From a virus (lineage: Duplodnaviria > Caudoviricetes): a stretch of 64,000 bases of DNA. Location: IMG/VR virus record IMGVR_UViG_3300009082_000959. One strand, 5' to 3'. Below are positions 227 to 55,400 of the stretch, piece after piece. A program made the position numbers and the translations under genes. Below the pieces are notes generated by a model that worked only from the letters and a program-made list of their open reading frames with translations, was not told the DNA's origin and ran no database searches. Every line of letters begins with the position of its first letter. The stretch's first letter is position 1.

Positions 227-1390
227 ATGATTTACCTGGATAATCAATCATCTACTAAAATAGATAAGCGTGTTTTAAAAGCAATGGAACCCTATCTAAC
301 AGAACATTTTGCAAACCCAGCAGCAGCCCATTTTGCGGCAGAGGAACCACGGCAAGCAATCGAAATGGCTCGCAATAATGTATCTTACTTGATTAAGGCA
401 AAACCAGAAAATTTATATTTTACTAATTCAGCAACAGAATCGAATAATATAGTTTTACAGGGTCGTTTAGCGAATCATAGGAAAAATAGCAATAATGCCG
501 CAATCATTATTACATCAAACATAGAACATTCTTCTGTTTCAAAAACGCTTCAAAATATGTGGTCGAAAGATAATCTTTTTTTCAATCAAACTTTAAAGAT
601 AAATAGCAACGGTGAAATTGATTTAGACAAACTCAATCATACAATTAAAAATTATTTCAGCAATCGTGTTATTCTGGTTTCTATCATAGCGGCGAGCAAC
701 GAAATAGGTGTAATAAATAATCTGTCCGACATAGGTGCGATTTGCAAGCGTCACAATGTTTTATTTCACACAGACGCAACACAGGCAATTGGAAAAGTTG
801 ATATTGATGTCAATGCCATGAATATATTTGCTTTGACTTTCAACGCTCACAAAATTAATGGGCCAAAGGGAGTTGGTGCTTTGTTTGTTAGAAATCCTAA
901 TTTAGTTGAGCCACTAATACACGGAGGATATCAGAACACTTTTTCATCAGGGACACAAAATGTTCCGGCAATAGTTGGGTTTGGAGAAGCATGTGATATA
1001 CTACGAAAAGAAGGGAAAAAAGAAAATGAAAGAATTAGTTATAGACGTGATTTGTTATGGAGAAATTTATCTTCCAGCATTCCTGATATTTTTATCAACG
1101 GCACAATGAAAAATCGTTTGCCAAACAACCTAAACATTACTATAAAAGGAGTTAAGGCAGAAATTTTGGTCAAGGGAATGAGTGATGTTGCGGTTTCCGG
1201 AGGTTCTGCGTGTAATTCTGGAAATCTGGAACCCTCGCTGGTAATATTGGCGCTCGGAACACCCTATCCTGATTGTGCTATAAGAATTAGTCTTGGAAGA
1301 TTCACCACAATGGCCGATTGTGAATATGCGGCAAAAAAGATTAAAGACATAGTAGAAAGTGTTAGGTGCAACAATGAAACCAAAATATAA
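227..1390 (+). CDS. iscS: Cysteine desulfurase (IscS/NifS/DndA group, PLP-dependent)
   Basis: IYLDN start, NSATESNN, IEHSSV, HTDATQAIGK, PLP-lysine motif AHKINGPKGVG, catalytic Cys loop GGSACNSG. Confidence 0.92.
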   Translation: MIYLDNQSSTKIDKRVLKAMEPYLTEHFANPAAAHFAAEEPRQAIEMARNNVSYLIKAKPENLYFTNSATESNNIVLQGRLANHRKNSNNAAIIITSNIEHSSVSKTLQNMWSKDNLFFNQTLKINSNGEIDLDKLNHTIKNYFSNRVILVSIIAASNEIGVINNLSDIGAICKRHNVLFHTDATQAIGKVDIDVNAMNIFALTFNAHKINGPKGVGALFVRNPNLVEPLIHGGYQNTFSSGTQNVPAIVGFGEACDILRKEGKKENERISYRRDLLWRNLSSSIPDIFINGTMKNRLPNNLNITIKGVKAEILVKGMSDVAVSGGSACNSGNLEPSLVILALGTPYPDCAIRISLGRFTTMADCEYAAKKIKDIVESVRCNNETKI

Positions 1391-1868
1391 AGTTGGAGAA
1401 ATAGTATTTGACAAAAACGGAGAGCAAGTAAAAGTAATTAAATTTAATCGCAATGAATATATCGTTGAGCCAATCAATAAGCGTTCAGAAAAAGAATCAG
1501 AGCTATTTGCTTCAAAATTAGAATCAGAAAATTATAGTAAAGTAAAAGATTTATTAATAGATAAAGAAAAAAAGTTAGATAAAATTAAATATAATAAGAT
1601 GGAAATAAATAAGTGTAAGAAATTAATAGAAAAATTTAATCGTAAATTAGAAACCGCGCAAAATAAAATATTAACATTAAAGTCTTTTCCAGATAGATTG
1701 ATAAACAGTATTTATAATTTAAGAGATGAAATATACGACAAAAAATCATATATTATAAATTGTAAAACTAATAGTCGCTACCTAAAAGAAAATATAAAAG
1801 ACATTGATAGAGATATAGAAGAACTTAAAAAAGAGCATTTAATTATTCAGTTGGCAGGTATTCAATGA
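1374..1868 (+). CDS. Hypothetical coiled-coil protein, tandem paralog of 1865-2380
   Basis: ATG at 1374 preferred over GTG 1359; N-terminus MKPKYKVGEIVFD and C-terminus ELKKEHLIIQLAG match the next ORF. Confidence 0.75.
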   Translation: MKPKYKVGEIVFDKNGEQVKVIKFNRNEYIVEPINKRSEKESELFASKLESENYSKVKDLLIDKEKKLDKIKYNKMEINKCKKLIEKFNRKLETAQNKILTLKSFPDRLINSIYNLRDEIYDKKSYIINCKTNSRYLKENIKDIDRDIEELKKEHLIIQLAGIQ

Positions 1869-2380
1869 AACCAAAATATAATGTTGGGGATATAGTGCTT
1901 GATAGGCACCAACACGCATTAAAAATAATTGATATACAAAAAACTAATGGAAGAATAAAATATTTTCTAAATTTTGCCGAGCCCATAGAAGCAGATGGTG
2001 AGAGTTTGTTTAAAACAAGAGATGATGTTATACGATTTAATAATATGGAATTTTTATTGGAAAGAAATTACGAAACAAAACGAACTATTAAGTATTACAA
2101 AAAACAAAAAAATAAGAACCAATCGATGCTGAAAAAGAATAAGGAAAAACTTCGTTGCATGAAAATAGAGTTGAAAAATAGAAAACGGCAGAATCTTGCA
2201 ATTTATGGGATATCTAAAAATATTGATAAGTTAGAGCAAACAATTCAACAAAGAATACGCAAAATTAGTGCAATTAATAGGATATTTAAAGATTGTGATG
2301 CCGAACAAAAAGAAATTAATGATAGTATTAAAGAACTTGAAAAAGAATACTTAATACTTTATTTAGCCGGAGTAAATTAG
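1865..2380 (+). CDS. Hypothetical coiled-coil protein, tandem paralog of 1374-1868
   Basis: MKPKYNVGDIVLD ... ELEKEYLILYLAG; ATGA overlap with the previous gene. Confidence 0.75.
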   Translation: MKPKYNVGDIVLDRHQHALKIIDIQKTNGRIKYFLNFAEPIEADGESLFKTRDDVIRFNNMEFLLERNYETKRTIKYYKKQKNKNQSMLKKNKEKLRCMKIELKNRKRQNLAIYGISKNIDKLEQTIQQRIRKISAINRIFKDCDAEQKEINDSIKELEKEYLILYLAGVN

Positions 2381-2382
2381 AA

Positions 2383-2703
2383 ATGAACAGAAAACGAAAA
2401 ACATTGGAGAAACTCGCCAAGGATGTTGGCGTAGCAACCGCAAAGAGTTATTTTGAGATGTTTTATGACGAAAAAAATCGTGGCGAATATTTTCGTTGGG
2501 AATACTTACCAAATTTAGCATATAGAATGGCAATTGCACAAATGGGAACAAGTTGCTCTGAAAGAGAATATGAAAGACTTGGAAAACATTTAGTAATAAT
2601 TGCTGGTGACTCTGCATTTGAAGAAGCAAAAGGGTTAATTGAGCAAAAGTTTCCAGGAACAATAATAGTAGAAAAAGAGGAGAACTATGAAGAAAAATAT
2701 TGA
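2383..2703 (+). CDS. Hypothetical protein
   Basis: Tightly packed ORF in the operon; no recognised motif. Confidence 0.7.
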   Translation: MNRKRKTLEKLAKDVGVATAKSYFEMFYDEKNRGEYFRWEYLPNLAYRMAIAQMGTSCSEREYERLGKHLVIIAGDSAFEEAKGLIEQKFPGTIIVEKEENYEEKY

Positions 2704-2792
2704 TACAAAGAATCGTATAGTTGATTATTGGGATATTAGCACTCTAACTGTTTTATAATTTAAGTAATTATTAAAATTAGGTTATAATATAG

Positions 2793-3743
2793 ATGAAAAT
2801 TTGCACCAAATGTAAAGTTGTGAAAAATGAAAATGAATTTAGCAAAGATAAAAGAAATAAAGATGGACTACATTATAATTGCAGAGATTGCAATAGTGAA
2901 AGAAATAAACAATACTATGAAAAGAATAAGGGAAAAGTTATTAAACATGCAAAAAATTATTATGAAAATAATAAAGAAAAAATTGCCATAGCAAAAAATA
3001 AATATTACCTGAACAATAAGGAAAAATTTATAGAGTATCAAAAACAGTATCGGGAAAATAATGTAGAAAAGATATACACATATCAAAAAGAATATCGCGC
3101 AAAAAATAATGAGAAGGTAGTAAAATATTCCAAAGAATATTGTGCGGCAAATAAATATAAAATAGCAGAATATCAAAAAGAATACTATGTAAAAAATAAA
3201 GATACAGTAGAAAAATATCAAAAAGAATACTATGTAAAAAATAAAGATACAATTTTGATTAACATAAGACAATATTATAAAAACAATAAAGAAAAAATTT
3301 CGGGCAAGGCGAAACAATATCGTAAGAATAATCAAGAAAAGATTGCGATAATGAGAAAACACTATCGATCAAAGAATGTTGCGAAAATATCGGAAAGCTA
3401 CAGAAAAAGATTGAAAACCGATATTAATTATAAATTGTCTTGTAATCTTAGGTGCCGTTTAAATAGGGCAATTAAAAATAATCAAAAGGCTGGTTCTGCC
3501 GTTAAAGATTTGGGCTGTTCAATACCAGAATTGAAAATTTGGATAGAACAACAGTTTAAACCCGGAATGACTTGGGAAAATTACGGTGAGTGGCACATTG
3601 ATCATATAATACCTCTTTCAAAATTTGATTTAACGGATAGAAAGCAATTTTTGAAAGCTTGCCATTAGTTTAATTTACAGCCACTTTGGGCCAAAGACAA
3701 TTTAAAGAAATCTAATAAATATAAAAAAGGAGATAATTTATGA
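2793..3743 (+). pseudogene. HNH homing endonuclease (N-terminal CxxC zinc finger, 15-aa repeats) interrupted by in-frame TAG at 3666-3668
   Basis: WHIDHIIP then ACH*FNLQPLWAKDNLKKSNK; three paralogs read ACHY/ACNW straight into NLQPLW; the read-through frame ends at TGA 3741-3743, overlapping the next ATG. Confidence 0.85.
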
Positions 3744-7455: not shown

Positions 7456-7657
7456 AGAATTAGAAGAAATAAGATTATATATAGAGACACTTGATACGGA
7501 GGAGCAAAATGCTCACTCCCATTTATTAAATACTCTCCAAAACACAATAGGTAGAACTTTTGAATTTGAAAATGTTGCAAAAGTTTTGAGAGAAGTATTG
7601 AATGCCAAATTAGGCATACTTGAAAAAATACGAAAGAAAATTCAAACATATGGGTAA
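7439..7657 (+). CDS. Hypothetical protein
   Basis: Overlaps both neighbours by a few codons. Confidence 0.6.
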   Translation: MSNRSKELEEIRLYIETLDTEEQNAHSHLLNTLQNTIGRTFEFENVAKVLREVLNAKLGILEKIRKKIQTYG

Positions 7658-8699
7658 TCAAGCCGAAGAAATGGCAGAGATTTTGTTGCAATTAAAAATA
7701 AATGCAGACATAATAAGTATAGATAACAGTGGAACTCTAACAAAATATTATCTTAAATTAAATCCAGGGGCCAAAGTATCTAAAATAGAAAATTGTTCTA
7801 CGGAGATAGCGCTTGGTATAAAATCTTATAGTAAGCCAATAATAAAAGTGGTATTAGAGCAGGGACTGGTTGTTCTTGAAGTATTGTCCAAACCAATAAA
7901 TTTTGTTGGCTTTTCAGAGTTGGCATGTGATATTTTGGCAGATAATAATTTGCCAATCCTATTAGGCAGGACACACGACGGAAAAGACCTAACAATTGAT
8001 TTAACAAAAATGCCACACTTGCTTGTGGCAGGAACAACCGGTTCTGGTAAATCTGTGCTGCTTCACTCAATGATAGCAAGCATTTTAACATTTAGTAATG
8101 CTAATTTAGTTTTGATAGACCCCAAGAAAGTAGAGTTTTCACATTACGCAAATATTAAAGAGTTGTTGTTTCCAATTATAACCGAAACCGAAGAAGCAGG
8201 AAAAGTTTTGTCCGACTTAATCAGCGAAATGGAAAACCGCTTTAAGTTTATGTCCAAGCATAGGATGAACAATATATCTATGGCAAAGGGTCAATTTAAG
8301 TATATTGTCCTCGTGATAGATGAATTTTCTGACCTGAACCAAACATCTAAAAAAGAGTTTCAGAATGACCTTTGTCGTTTAGCGCAAAAATCAAGAGCGT
8401 GCGGAATTCATATAATCATGGCAACACAAAGGCCATCCGTCGATGTGGTGACTGGTCTAATAAAAGCCAACTTTCCAACAAGAATAAGTTGTCGTGTCCC
8501 AACTTTGGTGGATAGTAGGGTTATATTGGGTTGCTCTGGCGCAGAAAAATTACTTGGAAACGGAGACTCACTAATCAATGTTGGAAGTGATTTAATAAGA
8601 TTTCAGGGTGCGTTCTTGTCTCAATCTGATATAATACAATTATCAAAAGCACATGAGATGAGCTGGCACTCGAAAATTTTTAATATGATTGGAATTTAA
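7650..8699 (+). CDS. ftsK: FtsK/SpoIIIE motor-domain protein (no TM or gamma domain)
   Basis: MPHLLVAGTTGSGKS, IDPKKVEF, VIDEFSDL, GIHIIMATQRPSVDVVTGLIKANFPTRI, GAEKLLGNGD; ATG 7650 preferred over 7620. Confidence 0.9.
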   Translation: MGNQAEEMAEILLQLKINADIISIDNSGTLTKYYLKLNPGAKVSKIENCSTEIALGIKSYSKPIIKVVLEQGLVVLEVLSKPINFVGFSELACDILADNNLPILLGRTHDGKDLTIDLTKMPHLLVAGTTGSGKSVLLHSMIASILTFSNANLVLIDPKKVEFSHYANIKELLFPIITETEEAGKVLSDLISEMENRFKFMSKHRMNNISMAKGQFKYIVLVIDEFSDLNQTSKKEFQNDLCRLAQKSRACGIHIIMATQRPSVDVVTGLIKANFPTRISCRVPTLVDSRVILGCSGAEKLLGNGDSLINVGSDLIRFQGAFLSQSDIIQLSKAHEMSWHSKIFNMIGI

Positions 8700-26538: not shown

Positions 26539-27384
26539 ATGCACAAAAAGTTTCTTGCACTGATTATGCTAATTTCTGCTTTTTCTTGGTCTTGTCAGGA
26601 TAAAAATAAATTGACAGTTGGAGAACAGATTTCAGAAACCATTGTGTATGTGAATCAATCATCAGGAGTCATTGTATATTCCGATGAAGAACGATCATTG
26701 GTTTTAACAGCATATCATGTAATAGCAGATAATTGCGATTCAAGCGGTAGTTGCAATACAGACGAAATAAAAGTATCCATAGTGTATCCAATTTTTTTGG
26801 ACAAAGAAACAAAAATAAGAGCAAGAGAGATAATGGAGAAAAATGGAACCAGTGAAGATATTATTAATTTAATATTGGATAATGAGTTTATTCAAATACC
26901 AGAGTTTTTTAGTGTTGTTCAATCCGAAGTAGACCCATCCCACGACTTGGCTATATTGGAAATAAAAACTTCGTTAAATTTTCGTTTCTCTAATCTTTCC
27001 AAAAAAGAATGCAAGGTTGGAGACGATGTTTATCTTGCTGGTAATCCAAATAGATTATTCAGAACAATATTAAAGGGAACCGTTGGGTCTATTGATAGGT
27101 TTATAGATAATACCGAGTCAATACAAATCAGTGGCGGAACAATATTCGGTAGCAGTGGCGGTGGAGTTTTTAATCTTGATGGGGAATTAATTGGAATAAT
27201 TCAATCCGTAAGGGCATTGGTTACGCCTTATTGTTATGGCGAGTGGAATGAAGATGGAGATTTTGTTAAAAGGACGTGCGTTGAGTTGCCAGTTGAGTTT
27301 TTGGGTTTTGCTGCAAAAGAAAAAGTAATTATCGACTTTCTATCTGAAAGTCGATTTTGTTTGTATTTTAAAATTTGTAAATAA
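26539..27384 (+). CDS. Trypsin-like serine protease with signal peptide (possible lipoprotein)
   Basis: LTAYHV, DLAIL, GSSGGG triad motifs; N-terminal MHKKFLALIMLISAFSWSC. Confidence 0.82.
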   Translation: MHKKFLALIMLISAFSWSCQDKNKLTVGEQISETIVYVNQSSGVIVYSDEERSLVLTAYHVIADNCDSSGSCNTDEIKVSIVYPIFLDKETKIRAREIMEKNGTSEDIINLILDNEFIQIPEFFSVVQSEVDPSHDLAILEIKTSLNFRFSNLSKKECKVGDDVYLAGNPNRLFRTILKGTVGSIDRFIDNTESIQISGGTIFGSSGGGVFNLDGELIGIIQSVRALVTPYCYGEWNEDGDFVKRTCVELPVEFLGFAAKEKVIIDFLSESRFCLYFKICK

Positions 27385-27461
27385 AAAAGAAAGGTTAGCT
27401 AACTGCACATAATCTGCTAATATCTTCCAACATAGTATGCCACTACATAGGAGGTATTTTC

Positions 27462-28055
27462 ATGTTCGTGCCGCTTAGAAAAGCGGTTGAATTAACGGGT
27501 CTACACCCAAACACTTTAAGGAAATATGCAGACCAAAACAAAATCAAAGCAGTCAGAACTCCCTGCGGGAACCGGTTGTTCGACACCGATTCACTTCCGG
27601 GCCAACAGGCTCAGCGATCAGCCACAGTCTGCTATTGTAGAGTTAGTTCAACCAAACAAAAATCAGGTCTCGCTAGACAAGTTGTTGAACTTAGAACCCA
27701 ATTCCCCCAAGCAGACATCATCCAAGATGTGGGATCCGAGCTCAACTTCAAAAGAAAAGGGCTTAGGTCCTTATTGGACCGATTGCTTCAAGGAGATCGT
27801 ATCACACTTATCGTGGCTCGCAGAGACCGGCTCTGCCGGTTTGGATTCGAGTTGCTTGAGTATTTGGTCACCAAAAACGGTGGAGAAATCATGGTTCTCG
27901 ACCAACCTGAAACAAGTCCGCAATCAGAATTGGTTCAAGACTTGTTGTCAATCATACTTGAGTTCTCTCGCAGAGTCCCAGGACTCCACAGATACTACGA
28001 TGATATCAAAAAAGATACGACTGTTACCAACTCAACAACAGAAACAGCAACTTAA
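27462..28055 (+). CDS. tnpA: IS607 serine recombinase TnpA
   Basis: N-terminal MerR-like HTH (TGLHPNTLRKY), YCRVSS catalytic Ser, DVGSELNFKRKGL, RDRLCRFGFE. Confidence 0.93.
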   Translation: MFVPLRKAVELTGLHPNTLRKYADQNKIKAVRTPCGNRLFDTDSLPGQQAQRSATVCYCRVSSTKQKSGLARQVVELRTQFPQADIIQDVGSELNFKRKGLRSLLDRLLQGDRITLIVARRDRLCRFGFELLEYLVTKNGGEIMVLDQPETSPQSELVQDLLSIILEFSRRVPGLHRYYDDIKKDTTVTNSTTETAT

Positions 28056-29121
28056 TTCGTGGATAAACGGTTTTCGTTTTGTTTATAATCAGTCTTTGGA
28101 GTATGCACAGAAGCAAACAACTACTCCATCGTGGTTTAAAACTAAAAAGCAGTTGTTAGATCAGTTACCCTCTTGGACTAAACAAATTCCCTATCAAATT
28201 AAATCAATTGCTATAAAGGAAGCATTTGATAACCTAAGACAACGGAAAAAACAAGCAAAATTTAAACACACTAAATTTAAGATGCACTTTAAGTCTAAGA
28301 AGGAACCACAACAATCGTGTTATTTGCCTAAGTCTGCGGTTTTGACAAAGGGAATTTATCCAAGGTTGCTGGGGAAACTTAAATACACAGAATCACTGCC
28401 ATCCAATATTGGTGACTCTCGTTTAGTTTACGTTTACGGGAAATTTTACTTAACTATACCAACAACAAAGCAACGGTCTTTAACCGAGAACCAAGGCAGA
28501 ATCGTTGCTCTCGATCCAGGTATAAGAAAGTTTATTACTTTCGTAAGTCATGACAGTGCGGGTTGCTTGGCAACCCATGACATAGGTAGGATTTATAGAT
28601 TATGTTTTTATTTAGACCAATTAGTTTCCAAGACAAGCAAGGCCAAGTCTAAACAAAAACATAATTTACGAAAAGCAGCAAACCGTATTCGTGAAAAAAT
28701 TAAAAACTTAATAGATGAACTACACAACAAAGTTGCCTATTTTCTTGTTAATAATTTTGACCTAATTTTACTACCAACTTTTGAAACACAACAAATGGTT
28801 TCCAAAGCACATCGTAAAATAGGATCAAAATCAGCCAGGGCCATGATGACTTTCAGTCACTATAAATTTAAGCAGAAACTAAAACACAAAGCCTTTGAAT
28901 ACGGGAAAGTAGTAGTTGATGTTTGTGAAGCCTATACTAGTAAAACCAATAATTTTACTGGCGTGGTGGATAAAAAATTAGGCGGAAAAGAATACGTATT
29001 AGTTGGTGGGAAAAAAGTGGATCGAGATATAAATGGAGCCTTGGGTATTTTACTTATGGCATTGGGAGATACACCCTATTTGGACAATTCAGTCCACAAT
29101 TGCACTGCTAATCATTATTAG
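28000..29121 (+). CDS. tnpB: TnpB RNA-guided nuclease, pro-Fanzor-like; frame is open upstream to ATG 27526
   Basis: KKIRLLP..QKQQL HTH start, RuvC-I ALDPG, RuvC-II LLPTFE, RuvC-III DRDING; no zinc-finger cysteines. Confidence 0.88.
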   Translation: MISKKIRLLPTQQQKQQLNSWINGFRFVYNQSLEYAQKQTTTPSWFKTKKQLLDQLPSWTKQIPYQIKSIAIKEAFDNLRQRKKQAKFKHTKFKMHFKSKKEPQQSCYLPKSAVLTKGIYPRLLGKLKYTESLPSNIGDSRLVYVYGKFYLTIPTTKQRSLTENQGRIVALDPGIRKFITFVSHDSAGCLATHDIGRIYRLCFYLDQLVSKTSKAKSKQKHNLRKAANRIREKIKNLIDELHNKVAYFLVNNFDLILLPTFETQQMVSKAHRKIGSKSARAMMTFSHYKFKQKLKHKAFEYGKVVVDVCEAYTSKTNNFTGVVDKKLGGKEYVLVGGKKVDRDINGALGILLMALGDTPYLDNSVHNCTANHY

Positions 29122-29143
29122 CAGAAAGGTATCGGAATAATTA

Positions 29144-30304
29144 ATGAGTAAAAGTATGGCAGATATTTGGAAGACTATAGAAAAGCAACATGGTCCTGAG
29201 GGATTGTATGTTGGCAATACGGACATGACAACATATTCTGGGGCCATTCCTACCGGCAGTTATGGTTTGGACGACGCCCTGGGTATTTGGGGTCTTCCAA
29301 AAGGACACATGGTTCAGTTTGCGGGGTTTGAGCAATCCGGGAAAACACTGATGGCTCTTTCTGCTATCGCACAGTGGCAAAAACAAGGTTCATCTAACTG
29401 GGCCATGTTTATCGACGCAGAATTTACCTACACAAAAGAGTGGGCAGAGATGCTGGGAGTTGATACTTCCAGACTTTATGTTTATAGAGAAAATAAGGGA
29501 CCAGAAATTTTTGCTCGTTTGACTGGTATTCCCGGTAAACCAAATTTGCAAGGCGTGATTAAAAAGGTTAAGCCCGGCATTTTGGATCTTGAAATAGAAA
29601 ACGGCGGAACTGGATTAGGTATTATTGTTCTTGACAGCGTTCCAGCCGTATTAGTGCCCATGGAAGAAGCCAGTGCGCCTGGAAAACAAAATATGGCTCT
29701 AATGGCTCGTTTTCTTCCGCCTGAGCTACGAAAGCTTACACCACTATTGACAAAAACCGGTGTGTTGTTTATTGCAATAAACCAATTACGTTTTACGCCT
29801 GGGGTTATGTATGGAGATCCTACTATGTCTCCTGGTGGTCAAGCATTAAAACATGCTTGTGCACAGATTATTAATTTTGGACGTATGAAAGGAAAAGACT
29901 CGAAGATTGAAGAGGGAGAGGAACAAACAGGTCATCACATCATGGCCAAAATCGATAAGAACAAAAAAGCTCCGCCGTTTCGTAAAGCAACTTTTGGTAT
30001 TAAATACACAGAAGGTGTGGTAGAGCAAAACATAGAAATTCGTGACCTCGGAGCAAAATATGGTGTAATTCTTCGTCCCAACAATAGAATTTGGGAGCTG
30101 GATGGCATAAAATATAGTGGTAAAGATGATATTGCCGAAGCCCTGAAAGAGGAAACCTTACAGCAGTCTGTGTTGGAACGAGTTAAAGAAGCTAAGAAAA
30201 ACTGTATTCATCTAGTTAATGTTGATGACGAAACCGAAACCGAAGAAGAGATGGACCAAGAACAAGAATTGTTGGATGCGGAATCTACACAAGAATTGGA
30301 ATGA
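29144..30304 (+). CDS. recA: RecA/UvsX recombinase
   Basis: IPTGSYGLDDALG, Walker A GFEQSGKT, FIDAE, IVLDSV, IAINQLR, PGGQALKH. Confidence 0.95.
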   Translation: MSKSMADIWKTIEKQHGPEGLYVGNTDMTTYSGAIPTGSYGLDDALGIWGLPKGHMVQFAGFEQSGKTLMALSAIAQWQKQGSSNWAMFIDAEFTYTKEWAEMLGVDTSRLYVYRENKGPEIFARLTGIPGKPNLQGVIKKVKPGILDLEIENGGTGLGIIVLDSVPAVLVPMEEASAPGKQNMALMARFLPPELRKLTPLLTKTGVLFIAINQLRFTPGVMYGDPTMSPGGQALKHACAQIINFGRMKGKDSKIEEGEEQTGHHIMAKIDKNKKAPPFRKATFGIKYTEGVVEQNIEIRDLGAKYGVILRPNNRIWELDGIKYSGKDDIAEALKEETLQQSVLERVKEAKKNCIHLVNVDDETETEEEMDQEQELLDAESTQELE

Positions 30305-30334
30305 TGTTGGGAATATTATTGCATGTGGGATAAA

Positions 30335-31174
30335 ATGAAAATTTGTGGACATTGTAAATTTGAAAAACCAAACTGTGAGTTTAATAAAAACAAACGCACA
30401 AAAGATAAATTAAGTAGTTGGTGTAAATCTTGCACAAAACAGTATCAAGTAAATAACAAAGATAAGATTGTGGCAAGAAAAAAACTATACTATAAAAACA
30501 ATAGAGAAACGATATTGGAAAAAGATAAATATTATAGAGAAAACAATAAAGAAAAAACTGCAGCATGTCGCAGTAAATATTATGAAAACAATAAAAAAGA
30601 AATATTAATTAATAAAAAACAATATTATGAAAATAATAAAGAATCGCTTTTAGAACAAGCTGCGGAATATTATGAAAATAATAAAGACAAAGTTCTAGAA
30701 AAAAGAAAACAAGATTATAAAGATACCAAAGACGAGACGCTTATAGAAAGAAAACTATATTACGAAAACAATAAGGAAAAAATATTAGAAGATGTTAAAA
30801 AATATAGTAATACGCCAGATGGCAGAGAAAAAATAAAACAGCGCCGAAAAAAGCGTCGTTCAACAGATATCAAACATAAATTGTCTCGTAGTCTAATACA
30901 TCGTTTATATAAAGCACTCAAAGGAAACTATAAATCTGGCTCCGCTGTTCGCGACTTAGGGTGTTCCATTGGCGAACTAAAAATGCGTTTAGAAAGACAG
31001 TTTGAGCCAGGAATGACTTGGGAGAATTATGGAGAGTGGCACATAGATCATATAATACCGATTTCTAGTTTCAACCTAACCGATAGAATGGAGTTTTTGG
31101 AAGCTTGCAATTGGTGCAACCTGCAGCCGCTTTGGGCTGCCGATAATATAAAGAAATCTAATAAATTAATATAA
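30335..31174 (+). CDS. HNH homing endonuclease with 15-aa repeats
   Basis: CGHC...CKSC, about eight YYENNKE-type repeats, WHIDHIIP...NLQPLWAADN. Confidence 0.88.
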   Translation: MKICGHCKFEKPNCEFNKNKRTKDKLSSWCKSCTKQYQVNNKDKIVARKKLYYKNNRETILEKDKYYRENNKEKTAACRSKYYENNKKEILINKKQYYENNKESLLEQAAEYYENNKDKVLEKRKQDYKDTKDETLIERKLYYENNKEKILEDVKKYSNTPDGREKIKQRRKKRRSTDIKHKLSRSLIHRLYKALKGNYKSGSAVRDLGCSIGELKMRLERQFEPGMTWENYGEWHIDHIIPISSFNLTDRMEFLEACNWCNLQPLWAADNIKKSNKLI

Positions 31175-47192: not shown

Positions 47193-50100
47193 ATGGAAAT
47201 ACGAAGAGGTCCATGGAAACCTGCTACAACCAATAAAGTAGCAACAGTAAAATCCAGTAGGTTCGGTGCGCGTCCAGCAACTGTTCTTAGTCCTGGTGTA
47301 TCAAATTCAGAGCACCATTTGGCTAATCGGCAGGCAGATACTGGCGCTATTCCCGAAAAAGTGTCAGAGTTTAGACAGGCAGAAATAATTAGAGCGACAG
47401 GATCCTCAAACAACCAAATCAAAGAGTCGCCTGCTCCATTATTATTATATAGTAATTCGTTCAAAAAATCTCAAGAAATAAAAGAAAATTTCCTGAGAAA
47501 AAGTGCCGCGTCTGTGACTTCTGGTGGATATAGTTCTGCTGGCGGCGGAACAACCATACAGGCACCAGAAATATATTCTCCACTATTTCAAATTGCAAAC
47601 CTACAGCTTCCGCGCGAAAGAATAACAATGAATGCGTGGAATAGAAATTTTTATGATACACATCCATTGGTTCACAACTGCATTAATTTGCACGCAACTT
47701 ATCCAATTAATAAAATAAACATTAAGTGCAAAGATGGCAAAATAGAACAATTTTTTAAGGATATGGCAGAGAACATAGACTTAATAGGTGTTTTGCAGGG
47801 AATGGCACTTGAGATTTTTAAGATTGGTGAGTGTTTCCCCTATGCCGAGTTGGATGAAAGAACTGGTGCTTGGAAAAGTATCGTAATTCAAAACCCAGAC
47901 TACATCCACATAAAAACATCTGTATTGGGAGGTGATCCAGTAATATCACTATCACCAGATGCGGCACTAAAACGATTGGTTCAAAGTAATAATCCAGCAG
48001 ACATACAATTAAGAAGCCAAATAGACGATGAAATTCTATATCACATTCGTAAGGGAAACAACATTCCTTTGGATAATTTTCACATAAGTCATTTGGCCCT
48101 TAAATCAGCTCCCTACGATGTGCATGGAACATCTCCAATAGTTACTGTCTACAAAGATCTTATGCTGTATGACAAACTTAGGGAGTGTTATTCTTCCGAT
48201 ACAGAAGTTTTGACTGATTCTGGTTTTATGAATGGTCTTGAATTGTCATTAAAGTATAAGAACAGTAATCAAAGCGATTTGCCATCTATTGCTTGTTTTA
48301 ATTCAGAAACAGAGATGGTTGAGCATCATAAACCAATAAAAACACATATATCAGAATATAATGGAAATATGTATAGGTTTAAGGGTAAAAAAGTAGATAT
48401 TCTCGTTACACCAGAGCATCGTATGTGGGTCAATAAGAACAAAAAGACTGGTTGGTCTGGATGGCATTTTGAACAAGCAAAGGATGTTAGCCCGTCCTAC
48501 TGGTACAAGTTTAGATGCCACGCAAAATACAATGAAGGCGAAAAGGTTGAATTTATTGATGTTCTTGGTAAAAAAATACCATCGGAACTTTACATGAAGG
48601 TTTTGGGACACATAATTTCGGAAGGATGTGTTTATCAAAGTTATAAAAACGGAAGATATGATAATAATGTTTCTATATGTCAAAATATAGAATCTAAATA
48701 TCAACAAAATATGAGAAATAATTTTAAGCAGTTTGCTGAATTATTGGGGAAAAATCTCGTAGAAAATACTAAGGTGGTTGGGTCTGGGTTTAGTGCACAT
48801 TCTCCAAAAAATAAGTGGGAAGCATTAGTGAGTGGTAAGGATTTAGTAAATTACTTCAAAAAAGAAATTGGAACAAATGATGTTTGTAATTCCGGAACCA
48901 AAAGAATTCCTAGGTGGATATTTGGACTACATTCTGATTTGTTAAAGTGTTTGTTGGAATCATTAATGGAGGGCGACGGGCATTTTTCAAGTAGTTTGTA
49001 TAATACAACATCAAAAGGCTTTCGTTATGACACTGGCTCAAAACAACTAGCAGATGATGTATATGAGTTAGTCTATCGCCTTGGATTTGTTCCGTTATTG
49101 CGAACAGTAGATAGGACTGGAGAAAATACTGGGAAAAATTTATTAGAATACTCTGTCTCTTGGTCAAACACACATTATGGCCGTGAGCCGCGTGTGTATG
49201 GAAAATCAGATTCAAAGCATCACGGTGCCCATATTGGTCAAACAGATTATGATGGTTTAGTTTGGTGCTTCGAAGTTCCTACTGGATTATTTATAACACG
49301 CAGAAATGGCAAAATAACTATTCAGGGAAACTCTAAATATGCACAGGCTGATAGCCTTGTAAATCCAATTACACTAATAAAAGTTGGTGGGGCTGGAGAA
49401 GGAGAATACAAAGCAACCGGTGATGACTTGGAGAAATGGCGTCAAATAATGGAGTGTCATGATGAAGAGACCGAGGTATTGACTGACCACGGTTTTAAGA
49501 AGTTTTTTGATGCAATTGATTACACAAGGAGCGATGATGTTGCTGTTTACACTGCATCACCAAAGACTGGAATAAAAATAGCTTGTTTTAATAATGATAC
49601 AAAACAACTTGAGTATCATATTCCATCCAGAGCTACTTTATATGATTATTCTGGAGAAATGTATCATTTCAGTGGCGGAAAATTAGATATCAAAGTTACA
49701 CCCAATCACAGAATGCTTGTTACAAGAAAACTAAAGAAAGGTTGGTCTAATAGTGAGATAATTACTGCTGAAAACCTTTCACTGGGGACACACTATAGGT
49801 TTAGGTCAGTCGCAAAATTCAACGGTGAAGAAAAAGAATCAATTAATGTTTGTGGGAAAAGTATAAAAACTGATGATTATTTGGAATTTTTGGGAAATGT
49901 TATAAGTGAGGGATATGTTTGTAAGATAAATGACAAGTATTATAATAGCATAACATTATATCAAGAAAATTGTTCTCCAGAAAAAAATAGTATGGAAACC
50001 AATTTAGAAAAAATAGCAAATTGTTTTGGGAAAACCATACAATCAAAAACAATTGATAATAGCCATACTCCATTTTCCGGCACAAATACAAGCACGATGT

Positions 50101-51422
50101 GGCGAGGAATTCTGTGCTCATCTGTTTTAACCAAACATTTGTTTGAAGAAATAGGTGAAAACGGAAAATGTAATTCGCACAACAAACGCATTCCAAGGTG
50201 GATTTATTCTCTATCTACACGACAAATGAAAATACTTATTAATTCTCTTGTCGCAGGAGATGGAACAAAATACACAAGTAAAACTGGTAAGAGTGGATTT
50301 AAATATAGTACAATATCTGAAAATTTGGCAAAAGACCTACATGAATTAGTGTTTTTGGCCGGGTTTGCTCCAAAAGTATATAAAACAAAGAATGGTCAAG
50401 GAAAAGACTATTGGCTTGTTACCTGGACTGAGAGTGGCAAGGGATCATTCCCGCATTTCGGTGGAGTATCAAATAAAAGAGAACAACAACTCACTAAAGA
50501 GCAATATAATGGTAAGGTTTGGTGCTTTACTGTTCCAACAGGATTATTTGTCACCAGACGAAACGGTTTAATTACAATTCAGGGTAATAGCGCTGAGTAT
50601 GATAAAAACTTTAAGATAATTACTCATGCAGGCGTTACGGTTGAAAGAGTTGGTGCTAATGGATCAATATTAGATATAAACCCAGACATGCAGGCTATTT
50701 TAGATAATATTTTGTACGGTCTTATGGTTCCAAAAGCGGTAGTGACACAGGAAGGTTCGTCTTTCAACAGCGCAACTGTTGGTCTAGAAGTTCTTAGGCA
50801 GCGCTACGAGGCTTTTAGGAACATGATGTCGCAGTGGCTCATTAAAAAGATATTTGCTCCAATCAGCGAAATACAAGAATTTTATGAGTATAAAGATGGG
50901 GATAAAAAACTTATTGTCCCAGACATTGAGTGGAATAGAATGATATTGTTTGATATGGATAACTATATCAGTGTATTAAACGGATTGGTCAAAGAAAAAG
51001 CAGTATCCAAGACTACACTTTTTAGAAGCCTTGGTCTAAACATCGATGAAGAGAATAGACTTCGTAAGGAAGAACTAATAAAAGAAGCTATAATAGGAAA
51101 AGAAACAGCTATTCTAAATTCAATGACTCTTGGTGCCTTGCGCTCACTAAAGGCAGAGGACGATATAATAGAACCAACAGACCAGGTTTCTCTACCTGGG
51201 ACACCTGGTTCAGAGGAATCAGGAATACCTGGAATGACTCCTCCTGGCGCCGGCGGATTAGGCGGTGGGGGTCTTGGTGGCTCTCCAATGCCTCCAATGG
51301 GCGGACTTGGCGGCGGCCTAGGTGAGCTTCCAACAGAGGGCCTTGGCGGCCCTGAAGCTCCTGCGGGCGGTGGAGAAACACCTCAAAGCCCAACGCCAGC
51401 ACCTACATCACCAACACAATAA
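47193..51422 (+). CDS. Portal protein containing two inteins (about 649 aa after splicing)
   Basis: Position after terL; extein motifs PEIYSPL, IGECFPY, IQNPDYI; Gly/Pro-rich tail; the portal call rests mainly on context. Confidence 0.8.
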   Translation: MEIRRGPWKPATTNKVATVKSSRFGARPATVLSPGVSNSEHHLANRQADTGAIPEKVSEFRQAEIIRATGSSNNQIKESPAPLLLYSNSFKKSQEIKENFLRKSAASVTSGGYSSAGGGTTIQAPEIYSPLFQIANLQLPRERITMNAWNRNFYDTHPLVHNCINLHATYPINKINIKCKDGKIEQFFKDMAENIDLIGVLQGMALEIFKIGECFPYAELDERTGAWKSIVIQNPDYIHIKTSVLGGDPVISLSPDAALKRLVQSNNPADIQLRSQIDDEILYHIRKGNNIPLDNFHISHLALKSAPYDVHGTSPIVTVYKDLMLYDKLRECYSSDTEVLTDSGFMNGLELSLKYKNSNQSDLPSIACFNSETEMVEHHKPIKTHISEYNGNMYRFKGKKVDILVTPEHRMWVNKNKKTGWSGWHFEQAKDVSPSYWYKFRCHAKYNEGEKVEFIDVLGKKIPSELYMKVLGHIISEGCVYQSYKNGRYDNNVSICQNIESKYQQNMRNNFKQFAELLGKNLVENTKVVGSGFSAHSPKNKWEALVSGKDLVNYFKKEIGTNDVCNSGTKRIPRWIFGLHSDLLKCLLESLMEGDGHFSSSLYNTTSKGFRYDTGSKQLADDVYELVYRLGFVPLLRTVDRTGENTGKNLLEYSVSWSNTHYGREPRVYGKSDSKHHGAHIGQTDYDGLVWCFEVPTGLFITRRNGKITIQGNSKYAQADSLVNPITLIKVGGAGEGEYKATGDDLEKWRQIMECHDEETEVLTDHGFKKFFDAIDYTRSDDVAVYTASPKTGIKIACFNNDTKQLEYHIPSRATLYDYSGEMYHFSGGKLDIKVTPNHRMLVTRKLKKGWSNSEIITAENLSLGTHYRFRSVAKFNGEEKESINVCGKSIKTDDYLEFLGNVISEGYVCKINDKYYNSITLYQENCSPEKNSMETNLEKIANCFGKTIQSKTIDNSHTPFSGTNTSTMWRGILCSSVLTKHLFEEIGENGKCNSHNKRIPRWIYSLSTRQMKILINSLVAGDGTKYTSKTGKSGFKYSTISENLAKDLHELVFLAGFAPKVYKTKNGQGKDYWLVTWTESGKGSFPHFGGVSNKREQQLTKEQYNGKVWCFTVPTGLFVTRRNGLITIQGNSAEYDKNFKIITHAGVTVERVGANGSILDINPDMQAILDNILYGLMVPKAVVTQEGSSFNSATVGLEVLRQRYEAFRNMMSQWLIKKIFAPISEIQEFYEYKDGDKKLIVPDIEWNRMILFDMDNYISVLNGLVKEKAVSKTTLFRSLGLNIDEENRLRKEELIKEAIIGKETAILNSMTLGALRSLKAEDDIIEPTDQVSLPGTPGSEESGIPGMTPPGAGGLGGGGLGGSPMPPMGGLGGGLGELPTEGLGGPEAPAGGGETPQSPTPAPTSPTQ
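48186..49331 (+). mobile_element. Intein 1 with LAGLIDADG endonuclease (382 aa)
   Basis: E|CYSSDTEVLT ... VWCFEVPTGLFITRRNGKITIQGN|S; LGHIISEG and LMEGDG motifs. Confidence 0.92.
49455..50588 (+). mobile_element. Intein 2 with LAGLIDADG endonuclease (378 aa)
   Basis: E|CHDEETEVLT ... VWCFTVPTGLFVTRRNGLITIQGN|S; LGNVISEG and LVAGDG motifs. Confidence 0.92.
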
Positions 51423-51431
51423 GGAAGCACA

Positions 51432-52187
51432 GTGTCTAAAAGACTCACAAGCAATAAAGTAGAAAGATCTATGTATCAACAGTGGTATTATGAAAACAAT
51501 AAAGACGAAATCACACAATATAAAAAGGCATATAACAAAAAAAATAAAAACAAAATAGCGGAAGAACAAAAACTATATTATGAAAATAATAAAGAGAAAA
51601 TAAAATCATATAAAAAGCAATATTACTTAGATAATAAAGACAAAATATCAGAGAAACAAAAACTATATTATGAAAACAATAAAGAGGTTATCGCAGAAAA
51701 AGAAAAACAATACTATGATAAAAATAAAGAAACCATATTGGTAAAAAATAAACAATACTATGAGGAAAATAAAGAAATAGTTTTAGAGAAAAATTCGGCG
51801 TATCGAAAAGAGCACAAAACAGAAATCACAGAAAAACAAAAAGAACGCTTAGAAGTTGATATTAATTTTAAGTTGTCATGTAGGTTGCGAACAAGACTTA
51901 GTGGTGCTTTAAAAAATAATCGCAAATGCGGTTCTGCAGTTAGTGACTTGGGTTGTTCAATATCAGAATTAAAAATTTGGTTGGAACAGCAATTTTATAA
52001 TCATTCTTATACTGGCGAACCTATGACTTGGGAAAACTACGGAGAATGGCATATAGATCACATTTTGCCTCTTTCTAAATTTGATTTAACTGACAAAACA
52101 CAATTATTGAAAGCTTGTAATTGGTTTAATCTACAACCTCTTTGGGCCGAAGATAATTTAAAGAAATCAGACAAAACAAAACAATGA
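51432..52187 (+). CDS. HNH homing endonuclease with 15-aa repeats (no N-terminal zinc finger)
   Basis: About eight repeats; WHIDHILP...NLQPLWAEDN. Confidence 0.87.
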   Translation: MSKRLTSNKVERSMYQQWYYENNKDEITQYKKAYNKKNKNKIAEEQKLYYENNKEKIKSYKKQYYLDNKDKISEKQKLYYENNKEVIAEKEKQYYDKNKETILVKNKQYYEENKEIVLEKNSAYRKEHKTEITEKQKERLEVDINFKLSCRLRTRLSGALKNNRKCGSAVSDLGCSISELKIWLEQQFYNHSYTGEPMTWENYGEWHIDHILPLSKFDLTDKTQLLKACNWFNLQPLWAEDNLKKSDKTKQ

Positions 52188-52466: not shown

Positions 52467-55400
52467 ATGCTATTCAATAATTTTAAAATTTTATCAAAAC
52501 GCGCCAAAGTTGTCAGTGATAAACCTGCATACAAAGACAAACAAGAAAGTGACAGCGGGAACACAATTTATCACTATGACGAAAAACATTTATCAAAACG
52601 CTGGCAACACAAGCGAGATAAGGTAAAAAATCTCGAAAAAAATGTAAAGAAAATACGAGAACAATATGAGAAGGATTTAAGTTCAGATGATCCCAGAACA
52701 CGCGCTATTGCTGCTGTTGTTGGTGTTATAGATGATACGGCCGCGCGCGTTGGAAATCCTGACTCTATTAAAGATCATGACACATATGGTATAACTACGC
52801 TAAAACTAAAGCACATTTCGTTTAGCGGCGGCAAAGCAAAACTAAAATTCCCAGGAAAAGACAATGTTAATCAAGACCTTACTGTTGATAATAAGAAAGT
52901 CATTAAGGTCTTAAAAGAACTTACCAAAGACAAGAAAAAAGATGATTTCCTTTTTGAGGTTGATGGGAAAAGAATTTGGGACCGTGCTATCAATAGATAT
53001 TTGTCTCCCTTTAAGATTAGTGCAAAGGATTTGCGCGGTTTCCATGCCAATCGTTTAATGAAAGAGTTACTGAAGAAAAAAGACTTTGACGAGGCTTTAG
53101 AGGAAACGGCCTCCATTGTGGGTCATGAAAAAGCAACGCTCAAAAATCAATACCTTTTACCCGAATTAGTCGAAAAATACGAAGGCAAAAAGAAAGATGC
53201 TAGCATAATGCGTTTATCAAAACGCGCTGAACTCACACCAGAAGACTTGGCTTGGGTTAATAGCATTAAGGGTTTGACTGCTGATGTTCCTTCTGCGCCA
53301 GCAACACAAACAGGTGGCGTAAAAATAAACAGTTTAATACTAGCTGCTTGGCAAACTTTATTACCATTTTTGCCAAAGGGTTCTGTGATTACTTCCGGAG
53401 AAAGAACGGCAGATGATCAAAAACGAATCCTGGAACACTATTGGCAAAAAGCAACTGGCCAAAAAATACCAGATAAACTTAAAGCCAATGATAGCGTATG
53501 GTTCCAAGTATCTAAGTCTCTTAAAGAGGACTATGGTTATATAGTTGGACCTCCGAAAACAAATGATCCTTATTCTCACTTGAACGGAAGAGCACTTGAT
53601 GTTTCTGGTGCAAACTTAAATCAAATTGCCAATATAGCGGCTTCTGTATCAAACAACCCAAAATTACCAGTAAAATTTAGAAAACCAGTAATAGAGAAGC
53701 AAAACAATTGTGTTCATCTGGGAATAGAGAACGCAGAATATAATCCTGCGGCAATTAAAGAAGTATTAAGTAGCGGATTGGGAGTTACTGCATCTATATC
53801 TGTGCGTGCAAATAAATTTTTGGATGAAATGGGTTTTGGTCTTGAAACAGAACAGGGTGATTTATTTGAGAAATCACCAATATTCAGGCATTATGATGGC
53901 TACCAAACATACAAAATTCATGATATTAGCGAAACAGAAGCTAGCAAATTAGCAAAGAGTGAACCAGACGAATTCTTTTATCGCGGACTACACAAAGAAT
54001 ACGCTAATCTTGTTCCTGGTGCTTTACGTAGCATGATACAATCGAATGCAAAATTTTTCTTTGTATTTGATTATCACAAAGATGAAAAATATTCAGACTT
54101 GTTAATTTTGGCCGCCGAACTATTATCTCAACAGGACCCTAGGGCATTTTTCTATTTCGGCCTACATAAAAAGTTTCCAGAATTAGGCAGAGGTGCTGTT
54201 GTTCAGTTGATTGATACCAATCCGGACTCATTTTTCGATCTTGGTCTGGAAAAAGAATACAGCGATTTAGAGGGAAGTGCTGGTGCTGCCAGAAACATAA
54301 AAGACCCAAATAAAATTGAAATAGAAAAAGATTCTAATTTGAATAAAGCAGCAGAGGAAGACGACGAAGAAAAAAAGAAATTAGAGGAATATTTGAAACT
54401 TCGAGAAAAATATAAGCGATTATTTAAAGACAGAGACTATAAAGAGTTTCCACCAGAGGACCGCAAAAAGGAATTTTGGAAGCATCAATTTAATCCAAAG
54501 GAAATTGGTAGTTTTCCTAGTTTCTGGGAATATCCAAAAGAAGAAGACCCGGATCGTGAGGAAAAAGAAGAAGACCTTAAAAAAAGACGCAAACAGTACT
54601 GGCAGCACCAATTAAGTCCCACCCGGTGGCTTGGCTATGGCGCTATTCCTTTTTGGAAATATCCGAAGAGTTCTGTGATGCCAGTGCTATCAAAACGCGC
54701 AGAAGTCAATGACGTTGCTGGCGTATTTGCAGTATTGCCAAAAGAAATAGCAAAACAATTTAAGTCTCTTGGTGACCACGACAACAGTGATCCACACATA
54801 ACTGTGATTTTTTGCGGTAAAGTAAAAAAGAAAGATAGAAAGTTGCTGGAAGAAACTGTCAGAGGAGTAATAGAAAACTGGAAGCCCTTTAAAGCAGAAT
54901 TAGATAGCAAGGTCACTTATTTTCCTGCAACCAAAAATTCAGATGGCTGTAAAATAGCTAAAATGAGTGTGAAATCCAAAGAACTTCACAGACTGCACAA
55001 AGAATTAAAAGAAGCGATTGAAAGCGCCGGAATAGAAATCGATGATACATTTCCTGATTACAAACCACACGTGACATTGGAATATTTAGAAAAAGGTGCA
55101 ACAAAATACGAAGACGAAGTTCCGGAAGGCTCTTGGGAAATAGATTGTGTAGAAATTTGGGGAATTGGTAAAAATAGAAAAATTAAATTTGACAAGCACG
55201 AGAAGAAAGCGTGTCTATCAAAACGGGCATCATTCACAGAAGAAGAGGCGAAGGAACTGGCCGAAAAAGGTTCTGATACTTTTTTTTACTATCACCTACA
55301 GGAAACCTACCCACATCTCGCAGAACAGGCGGCGCGTAATCTAGCAAAAGTATCAGCATTTGATTTTTTTTATTACAGACTACACGAAACATACCCACAT

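Follow-up and report, generated by a model that had tools for sequence, protein, structure and literature searches.

How does a phage-borne transposon come to encode a nuclease whose amino-terminal domain is written, in the +1 frame, inside the gene of its own transposase? The question is raised by an IS607 element in a 64,000-nucleotide stretch of viral DNA (IMG/VR record IMGVR_UViG_3300009082_000959; hereafter the window). Considered as a whole, the explanation that we think likely, and hold with good confidence, is that this is an IS607 transposon with a pro-Fanzor-type TnpB homing nuclease, the N-terminal domain of which is overprinted on tnpA. Comparison with related loci delimits the element ends and the two open frames, and it points to selection on both frames, to a predicted catalytic triad and to a covarying pseudoknot. 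The features needed for the argument, all on the plus strand, are as follows.

26539-27384, plus strand: trypsin-like peptidase gene, left neighbour; it directly abuts recA in a related element-free phage
27393-27461, plus strand: IS607 left end, starting at the GG crossover dinucleotide (27393-27394), with A before it (inferred TAM 5'-AGG)
27462-28055, plus strand: tnpA, IS607 serine transposase of 197 aa with a MerR-type HTH and a resolvase domain (NCBIfam match)
27526-29121, plus strand: tnpB long form, predicted pro-Fanzor-type RNA-guided nuclease of 531 aa, +1 to tnpA over 27526-28055
27526-27768, plus strand: TnpB residues 1-81, overprinted leader; poorly conserved, predicted to be disordered (pLDDT below 50), largely stop-free
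27769-27999, plus strand: TnpB residues 82-158, overprinted N-terminal domain with conserved P82, W84, L95 and S122-W123-F124; putative counterpart of the Fanzor2 NTD/RuvC-R
28000-28002, plus strand: M159, at which the 373-aa short form called in the database begins; private to the window copy and without a Shine-Dalgarno motif
28513-29028, plus strand: RuvC triad D330 (DPG), E468 (shifted) and D501, aligned to ApmFz2 D324, E467 and D501, with P417 at the canonical Glu site
29068-29135, plus strand: right end with the predicted 3' part of the omegaRNA scaffold; its loop GATAC (29068-29072) is the complement of GTATC (29129-29133), and a hairpin occupies 29105-29124
29136-29155, plus strand: predicted guide, flanking DNA over the recA start codon (29144), as expected from IS607 TnpB biology (PMC10711439) and the mapped end
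29144-30304, plus strand: phage recA, right neighbour; the GG of its ribosome-binding site is the insertion point of the element

The window belongs to a large bacteriophage. Genes for a DNA polymerase, a terminase and a portal protein were found, which bears out the description of the element as phage-borne in an initial annotation of this DNA, and the identical TnpB protein is recorded on a contig reaching 289 kb. The DNA may come from freshwater sediment. The IS607 element spans 27393-29135 and interrupts the recA ribosome-binding site. We mapped its ends by aligning multi-copy cyanobacterial relatives and the closest phage relatives; similarity ceases on the left at the GG of 27393-27394, and on the right, where the element ends in ATCGG at 29135, a second contig from the same sample diverges exactly past that position. 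IS607 elements are defined by a GG dinucleotide at their junctions, without terminal inverted repeats or target duplication (PMC6188088). Here GG was found at both junctions, and no end-to-end repeat was evident in the aligned ends. Removing the element in silico from the sequence restored an AAGGA ribosome-binding site before recA, and the Shine-Dalgarno motif of tnpA (27449-27454) lies inside the left end. The corresponding empty gene order, with the peptidase gene directly against recA, is present in a related phage. A search of viral contigs for the empty-site sequence pattern gave no match, and the joined, excised form was absent from the contigs, an absence that is uninformative.

The five closest relatives (60-65% identity) occupy other insertion sites, and at least two of these relatives are carried by related phages. 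Several phage copies, including the one in the window (27393) and those at L331:1028, L332:2501, L333:2501 and L336:543, are inserted at the GG of an intergenic Shine-Dalgarno motif, and the GG target could give a safe-harbour effect through such insertion. An ATG follows shortly after the right end in 14 of 32 viral versus 17 of 67 genomic loci, so that a preference for ribosome-binding sites is only suggestive. Elsewhere in the window we observed two related HNH/endonuclease VII-like homing endonuclease genes (30323-31174 and 51432-52187), the one after recA being missing from the related phage L337. A portal protein of 1409 aa (47193-51422) has LAGLIDADG and intein-like matches and probably carries more than one intein. 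Next to the portal gene, a 2602-aa ORF (52467-60275) combines a type IB topoisomerase core, a 2H phosphoesterase with a weak Acb1 match and a polyA-polymerase/CCA head domain, and looks like a polyvalent phage protein. Genes for a class-V aminotransferase (cysteine desulfurase-like) and an FtsK-like ATPase lie at 227-1390 and 7620-8699.

The initial annotation held that the tnpB frame is open from 27526 through most of tnpA, and this is what we found: 531 codons up to 29121 contain no stop, the preceding in-frame stop is at 27517, and the PYW and SWFST segments that it quoted are present as described. The two genes overlap by 530 nt (176 codons), with 158 codons lying before M159. This arrangement is shared by relatives. 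Nearly all of the best 120 homologs are 500-550 aa long and cover the extension, and W84, L95, S122 and W123 are invariant across 116 sequences. Wherever tnpA could be detected in the loci fetched, TnpB is read in the +1 frame relative to it, and the overlap is typically 350-700 nt where tnpA is intact. Judged by these loci, the overprint is a clade-wide trait and not special to the window phage; absence of the frame from relatives had been named beforehand as evidence against the idea, and the frame was found to be kept in more than a hundred relatives. Gene callers annotate the long TnpB alone in L331-L336 and skip the overlapping tnpA, and in the window they took the short TnpB.

The wobble base of tnpA coincides with the middle base of the TnpB codon, which allows selection on the +1 frame to be measured by synonymous re-coding of tnpA. 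None of 300 such re-codings of the window tnpA kept the +1 frame open, with 9.6 stops expected. Across 72 non-redundant loci selected by TnpB, the +1 frame held 2 stops versus 590 expected. Bias from TnpB-based selection was removed by searching with TnpA alone, which gave 126 loci with TnpA identity to the window down to 35%; these held 74 stops versus 978 expected, and 112 had none, counts that come from related loci and do not represent independent events. The +2 frame of the same 126 loci contained 818 stops. Eight canonical IS607 tnpAs served as controls and showed no depletion (86 stops versus 90 expected), the +1 frame being closed in all eight and open in the clade of the window. Depletion was also localized. 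It was absent over tnpA codons 2-19 (96 stops versus 98.5 expected), partial over codons 26-74 (27 versus 133) and nearly complete beyond codon 74, an onset that fits initiation at an ATG of tnpA codons 22-25; ATG enrichment at the start site is modest (62 versus 49). At the residue level, observed frequencies in the 72 loci exceeded the re-coding expectation for W84 (97% versus 35%), S122 (100% versus 23%) and P82 (90% versus 18%), and the PYW and SWF residues constrain tnpA wobble bases.

Loci in which tnpA has died offer a separate view of the extension. In twelve of them a TnpA ghost can be recognized in the former frame (E 1e-8 to 1e-52, with 5-22 stops), and in 11 of the 12 the TnpB frame is open across the ghost. 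As the frame and its motifs persist after tnpA death, the extension is selected in its own right, with tnpA as the older frame. Five phage TnpBs (L114, L116, L123, L125 and L141, at about 990-3350) begin immediately upstream of the PYW helix, across a tnpA ghost riddled with stops, and may mark the minimal extension needed, about 85-90 residues ahead of the HTH. Both frames bear the marks of purifying selection, and the new frame is confined to a subset of the older gene's range, as in other overprinted genes. On comparative grounds, double coding is under selection, and the proposal that the N-terminal domain is dual-coded with TnpA gains strong support from the stop and residue tests.

Two other accounts of the open frame were weighed against these data. 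The frame could be a by-product of TnpA conservation or of a constraint at the DNA or RNA level, with the 373-aa short form as the real protein. The database gene caller chose that form in the window, Pfam and NCBIfam TnpB matches begin near residue 161, and for some +1 residues (K52, N135 and K163) the TnpA sequence leaves little choice. Against this, re-coding predicts about 8 stops per locus, which canonical IS607 tnpAs do have, and the open frame outlasts tnpA itself. The short form also has a poor start: the M159 position is Thr in all five closest relatives, and an ATG near it occurs in 23 of 72 loci. We regard the by-product account as very improbable. Slightly less so, yet still improbable, is entry into the +1 frame by ribosomes that shift (+1) out of tnpA, which would produce a TnpA'-TnpB fusion with no separate initiation. 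Frameshifting is common in the IS3 and IS1 families, the Shine-Dalgarno-like AGGA of the 27526 ATG is weakly spaced at just 3 nt, and stop depletion over tnpA codons 26-74 is incomplete. Yet an in-frame ATG lies upstream of W84 in all 72 loci, 46 of them at tnpA codons 22-25, the tnpA-dead loci possess their own upstream Met, and the open stretch begins in the middle of the HTH, so a fusion would lack any whole TnpA domain. Separate initiation of a long, overprinted TnpB is the reading that we carry forward.

The core of this TnpB resembles Fanzors. The initial annotation recognized a Pro at the canonical Glu site of the RuvC-II segment LLPTFE, which is P417, and took the Glu within that segment as the shifted one. 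The first part stands; the shifted Glu is predicted instead to be E468, which sits in EAYTSKT six residues before the zinc-finger position and aligns with ApmFz2 E467. The LLPTFE glutamate, E420, was rejected as the catalytic residue, as it aligns with Asn in ApmFz2. D330-P331-G332 is invariant in the 116 sequences; because the overprinted members L180, L188, L302 (DCG), L189 (DQG) and L322 (DVG) have lost the DPG signature, it is not universal in the clade. The reported lack of cysteines in the zinc finger was confirmed for residues 475-497.

We placed the protein in a tree based for the most part on TnpB outside the overlap, leaving out ApmFz2 and the published pro-Fanzor/Fanzor2 reference set. 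In this tree, 74 rows including 14 elements from giant-virus MAGs split from 6 canonical TnpBs (SH-aLRT 97, and 100 in a smaller tree), so that, among the proteins included, the window TnpB groups with giant-virus Fanzor2-like proteins and apart from canonical IS607 TnpB, as the initial annotation had expected. Its assignment to a Fanzor-ancestral clade, a placement resting on Yoon et al. 2023 (PMC10711439), survives in part. A relationship to Fanzors is borne out by DPG, the shifted Glu, ApmFz2 as the best PDB match and the tree, but the cysteine-less group, which lies among C4 members as one side of a branch with support 89, is a derived side branch in this tree. Zinc-finger cysteines are missing throughout this large sublineage, which includes most cyanobacterial copies and has multi-copy genomes among its carriers; loci L114 and L123 are also cysteine-less. 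Zinc-finger loss as such is known from other TnpB branches. The search pattern of Yoon et al. needs two CxxC motifs, which are not part of their stated definition of pro-Fanzors (PMC10711439), and the cysteine-less branch escapes it for that reason.

Is the extension the counterpart of the N-terminal domain of Fanzor2? In ApmFz2, residues 1-53 are disordered, the NTD covers 53-130, and RuvC-R contacts the omegaRNA pseudoknot via N82 and S83, together with D397 and K401 (PDB 9B0L, PMC11832414). Our structure model of the window TnpB has a disordered segment at residues 1-81, a helix at 86-94 whose pLDDT lies in the 70s, and a low-confidence stretch at 102-122. VIA-align pairs model residues 80-518 with 9B0L residues 53-518 (Z 24.4, rmsd 4.0, 401 aligned), and among the matches listed 9B0L alone aligns from model residue 80, the other TnpB structures starting near 156. 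A family profile aligns the SWF of the extension with N82-S83-W84 of ApmFz2, and E398 and K402 match its pseudoknot contacts D397 and K401. In the majority of the giant-virus elements recovered, the overprint and its motifs are likewise present. In a few others tnpA runs along the opposite strand, and wherever stops were counted (L204 and L218) the +1 frame is closed; these elements keep W.P...[ST]WF, as do most of 38 relatives of the non-overlapping L204 protein (the motif regex matches 33, a few at other positions). The Fanzor2 motif P-[FY]-W...SWF named in the initial annotation holds for overprinted giant-virus elements, while stand-alone Fanzor2-like proteins keep mainly W.P...SWF, and ApmFz2 offers the NSW match alone. 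Three loci (L204:1020-2450, L341:667-2688 and L342:1298-3461) encode Fanzor2-like proteins with a divergent opposite-strand tnpA and a shortened free N-terminal domain, and are candidates for the step resolving the overlap.

Homology between the extension and the ApmFz2 NTD is moderately supported by these alignments and the structure model, and we consider it likely. The alternative is that the extension is translated and selected and the Fanzor2 domain arose separately, with a convergent W/F motif. In keeping with it, a search with an NTD-only profile did not retrieve 9B0L at E<=10, the NTD profile matches that of stand-alone Fanzor2-like proteins weakly (E 6e-4, probability 29%), L204, L218, L239 and L149 showed no detectable TnpA ghost, and the AU test (30 rows, p 0.126) does not reject a basal position of the non-overlapping Fanzor2-like genes, so that their nesting inside the overprinted clade is not statistically secured. 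Convergence is harder to reconcile with the same position of the domain in collinear homologs, with a structural alignment that covers ApmFz2 from residue 53, with the retention of the motif in most relatives of the L204 protein and with the presence of the overprint itself in most giant-virus elements, and we think it doubtful. Granting homology, we lean towards an origin of the Fanzor2 NTD de novo in the +1 frame of an IS607 tnpA in a prokaryotic ancestor, after which the domain would have become a structural part of the nuclease and been freed when tnpA died or was inverted.

A last alternative concerns the window copy itself, which might be a relic with both proteins drifting and the nuclease inactive. 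Its TnpA scores 153 bits against the NCBIfam IS607 transposase NF033518 (cutoff 110) and retains catalytic Ser62, and it carries private changes at conserved sites (D69G, G93E, H166L, C170R and R176H). It deviates at 7 of 59 conserved columns (median 2), and of 78 sites that are fixed in the other sequences 11 carry private changes, versus 0-4 in relatives with an intact tnpA; the extension likewise has 11 of 49, versus 2-7 in relatives. This excess over the overlap in both frames, and the absent zinc-finger cysteines, would suit a relic. But TnpB residues 178-515, outside the overlap, change at a normal rate (12 of 172 versus 6-11), the triad, PYW, SWF, element ends and pseudoknot are intact, and the loss of cysteines is common to a widespread lineage with multi-copy genomes. 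Private changes follow the same pattern in a relative whose tnpA start is broken. We therefore find an inactive relic unlikely; the simplest reading is that this copy is probably at an early stage of losing transposase function and keeps its homing nuclease.

The right end provides a candidate guide RNA. Its 5-bp complementarity matches the pseudoknot required by IS607 TnpB, and the pairing is perfect in 79 of 99 loci, where six sequence variants represent compensatory changes. A search of Rfam found no family for the right-end RNA, and its single-sequence folding was unremarkable (z -1.6). The base before the left-end GG was A in 18, G in 6, T in 4 and C in 3 of 31 loci; from these left flanks the TAM is probably 5'-NGG, most often AGG.

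Under the preferred reading, both proteins would be translated from a single transcript, TnpA starting at 27462 and the 531-aa TnpB at an internal ATG located at 27526 or close to it. TnpB would load the omegaRNA of the right end with about 17-20 nt of flank and cut empty alleles bearing the TAM and a guide match, here the start of recA in a phage genome that co-infects the cell or has lost the element by excision. Repair by recombination would then copy the element back into the cut allele. Residues 82-158 may pack on RuvC and, like RuvC-R in ApmFz2, help to keep the omegaRNA pseudoknot in place, and in the cysteine-less branch they may compensate for the lost zinc finger. The domain would have arisen de novo over the older tnpA in the clade ancestor, would outlive a dead tnpA, and would persist, shortened, in non-overlapping giant-virus Fanzor2-like genes. 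We regard the clade-wide dual-coding arrangement in a cysteine-less pro-Fanzor variant as real, and infer translation, cleavage and the role of the domain.

If true, this gives a traceable origin for a domain seen in a Fanzor2 cryo-EM structure. For a clade-wide overprint on the same strand in prokaryotic mobile DNA, the overlap is also unusually long. The dead-tnpA loci are natural experiments already in databases. There are practical consequences as well: gene callers retain one of two frames, so pro-Fanzors cloned from annotations may miss a needed domain, and cysteine-less members have gone unseen in published pattern searches. The literature does contain general statements of overlap between IS607 ORFs; a long tnpA/tnpB overlap is not described in the Fanzor literature that we searched, with subscription papers and ISfinder outside its scope, and Yoon et al. 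2023 (PMC10711439) do not mention the overlap, the frame or the N-terminal extension.

Among known systems, the cyanobacterial pro-Fanzor IS607 TnpBs (PMC10711439) share DPG at RuvC-I, a Glu shifted to just before the zinc-finger region, a serine-recombinase TnpA, GG ends and a pseudoknotted right-end RNA. The window TnpB, which is 45-52% identical to cyanobacterial genome copies, differs in being phage-borne and without CxxC motifs. The mimivirus Fanzor2 ApmFz2/L79 (PDB 9B0L, PMC11832414, PMC10530073) is its best sequence and Foldseek match, with an equivalent triad, a disordered leader followed by an NTD, and a G-rich TAM. That NTD has been described as unique to Fanzor2, its origin not given (same sources). 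Identity is about 21-23%, however, and ApmFz2 has a C4 zinc finger, an NLS and a eukaryotic virus as its carrier; Fanzor2 proteins are encoded by eukaryotes or eukaryotic viruses, whereas the terminase, portal, recA and Shine-Dalgarno motifs here are those of a bacteriophage. Canonical IS607 elements (H. pylori IS607, ISXfa1 and the phage Ma-LMM01 element) have the same TnpA architecture, GG crossover and tnpA-tnpB order, with tnpB often +1, but their overlap is just about 25-65 nt, their +1 frame is stop-filled, and their TnpB is about 370-430 aa with the canonical Glu. The ApmFz2 tnpA is presumably on the opposite strand (L79/R80). Overprinted genes of viruses and bacteria (PMC4683798) likewise place a new frame inside an older gene, with a narrower phylogenetic range and disorder. 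The overprint in the window differs from these in that it lies on the same strand, adds a domain to an enzyme that already existed, and is common to bacterial, phage and giant-virus elements.
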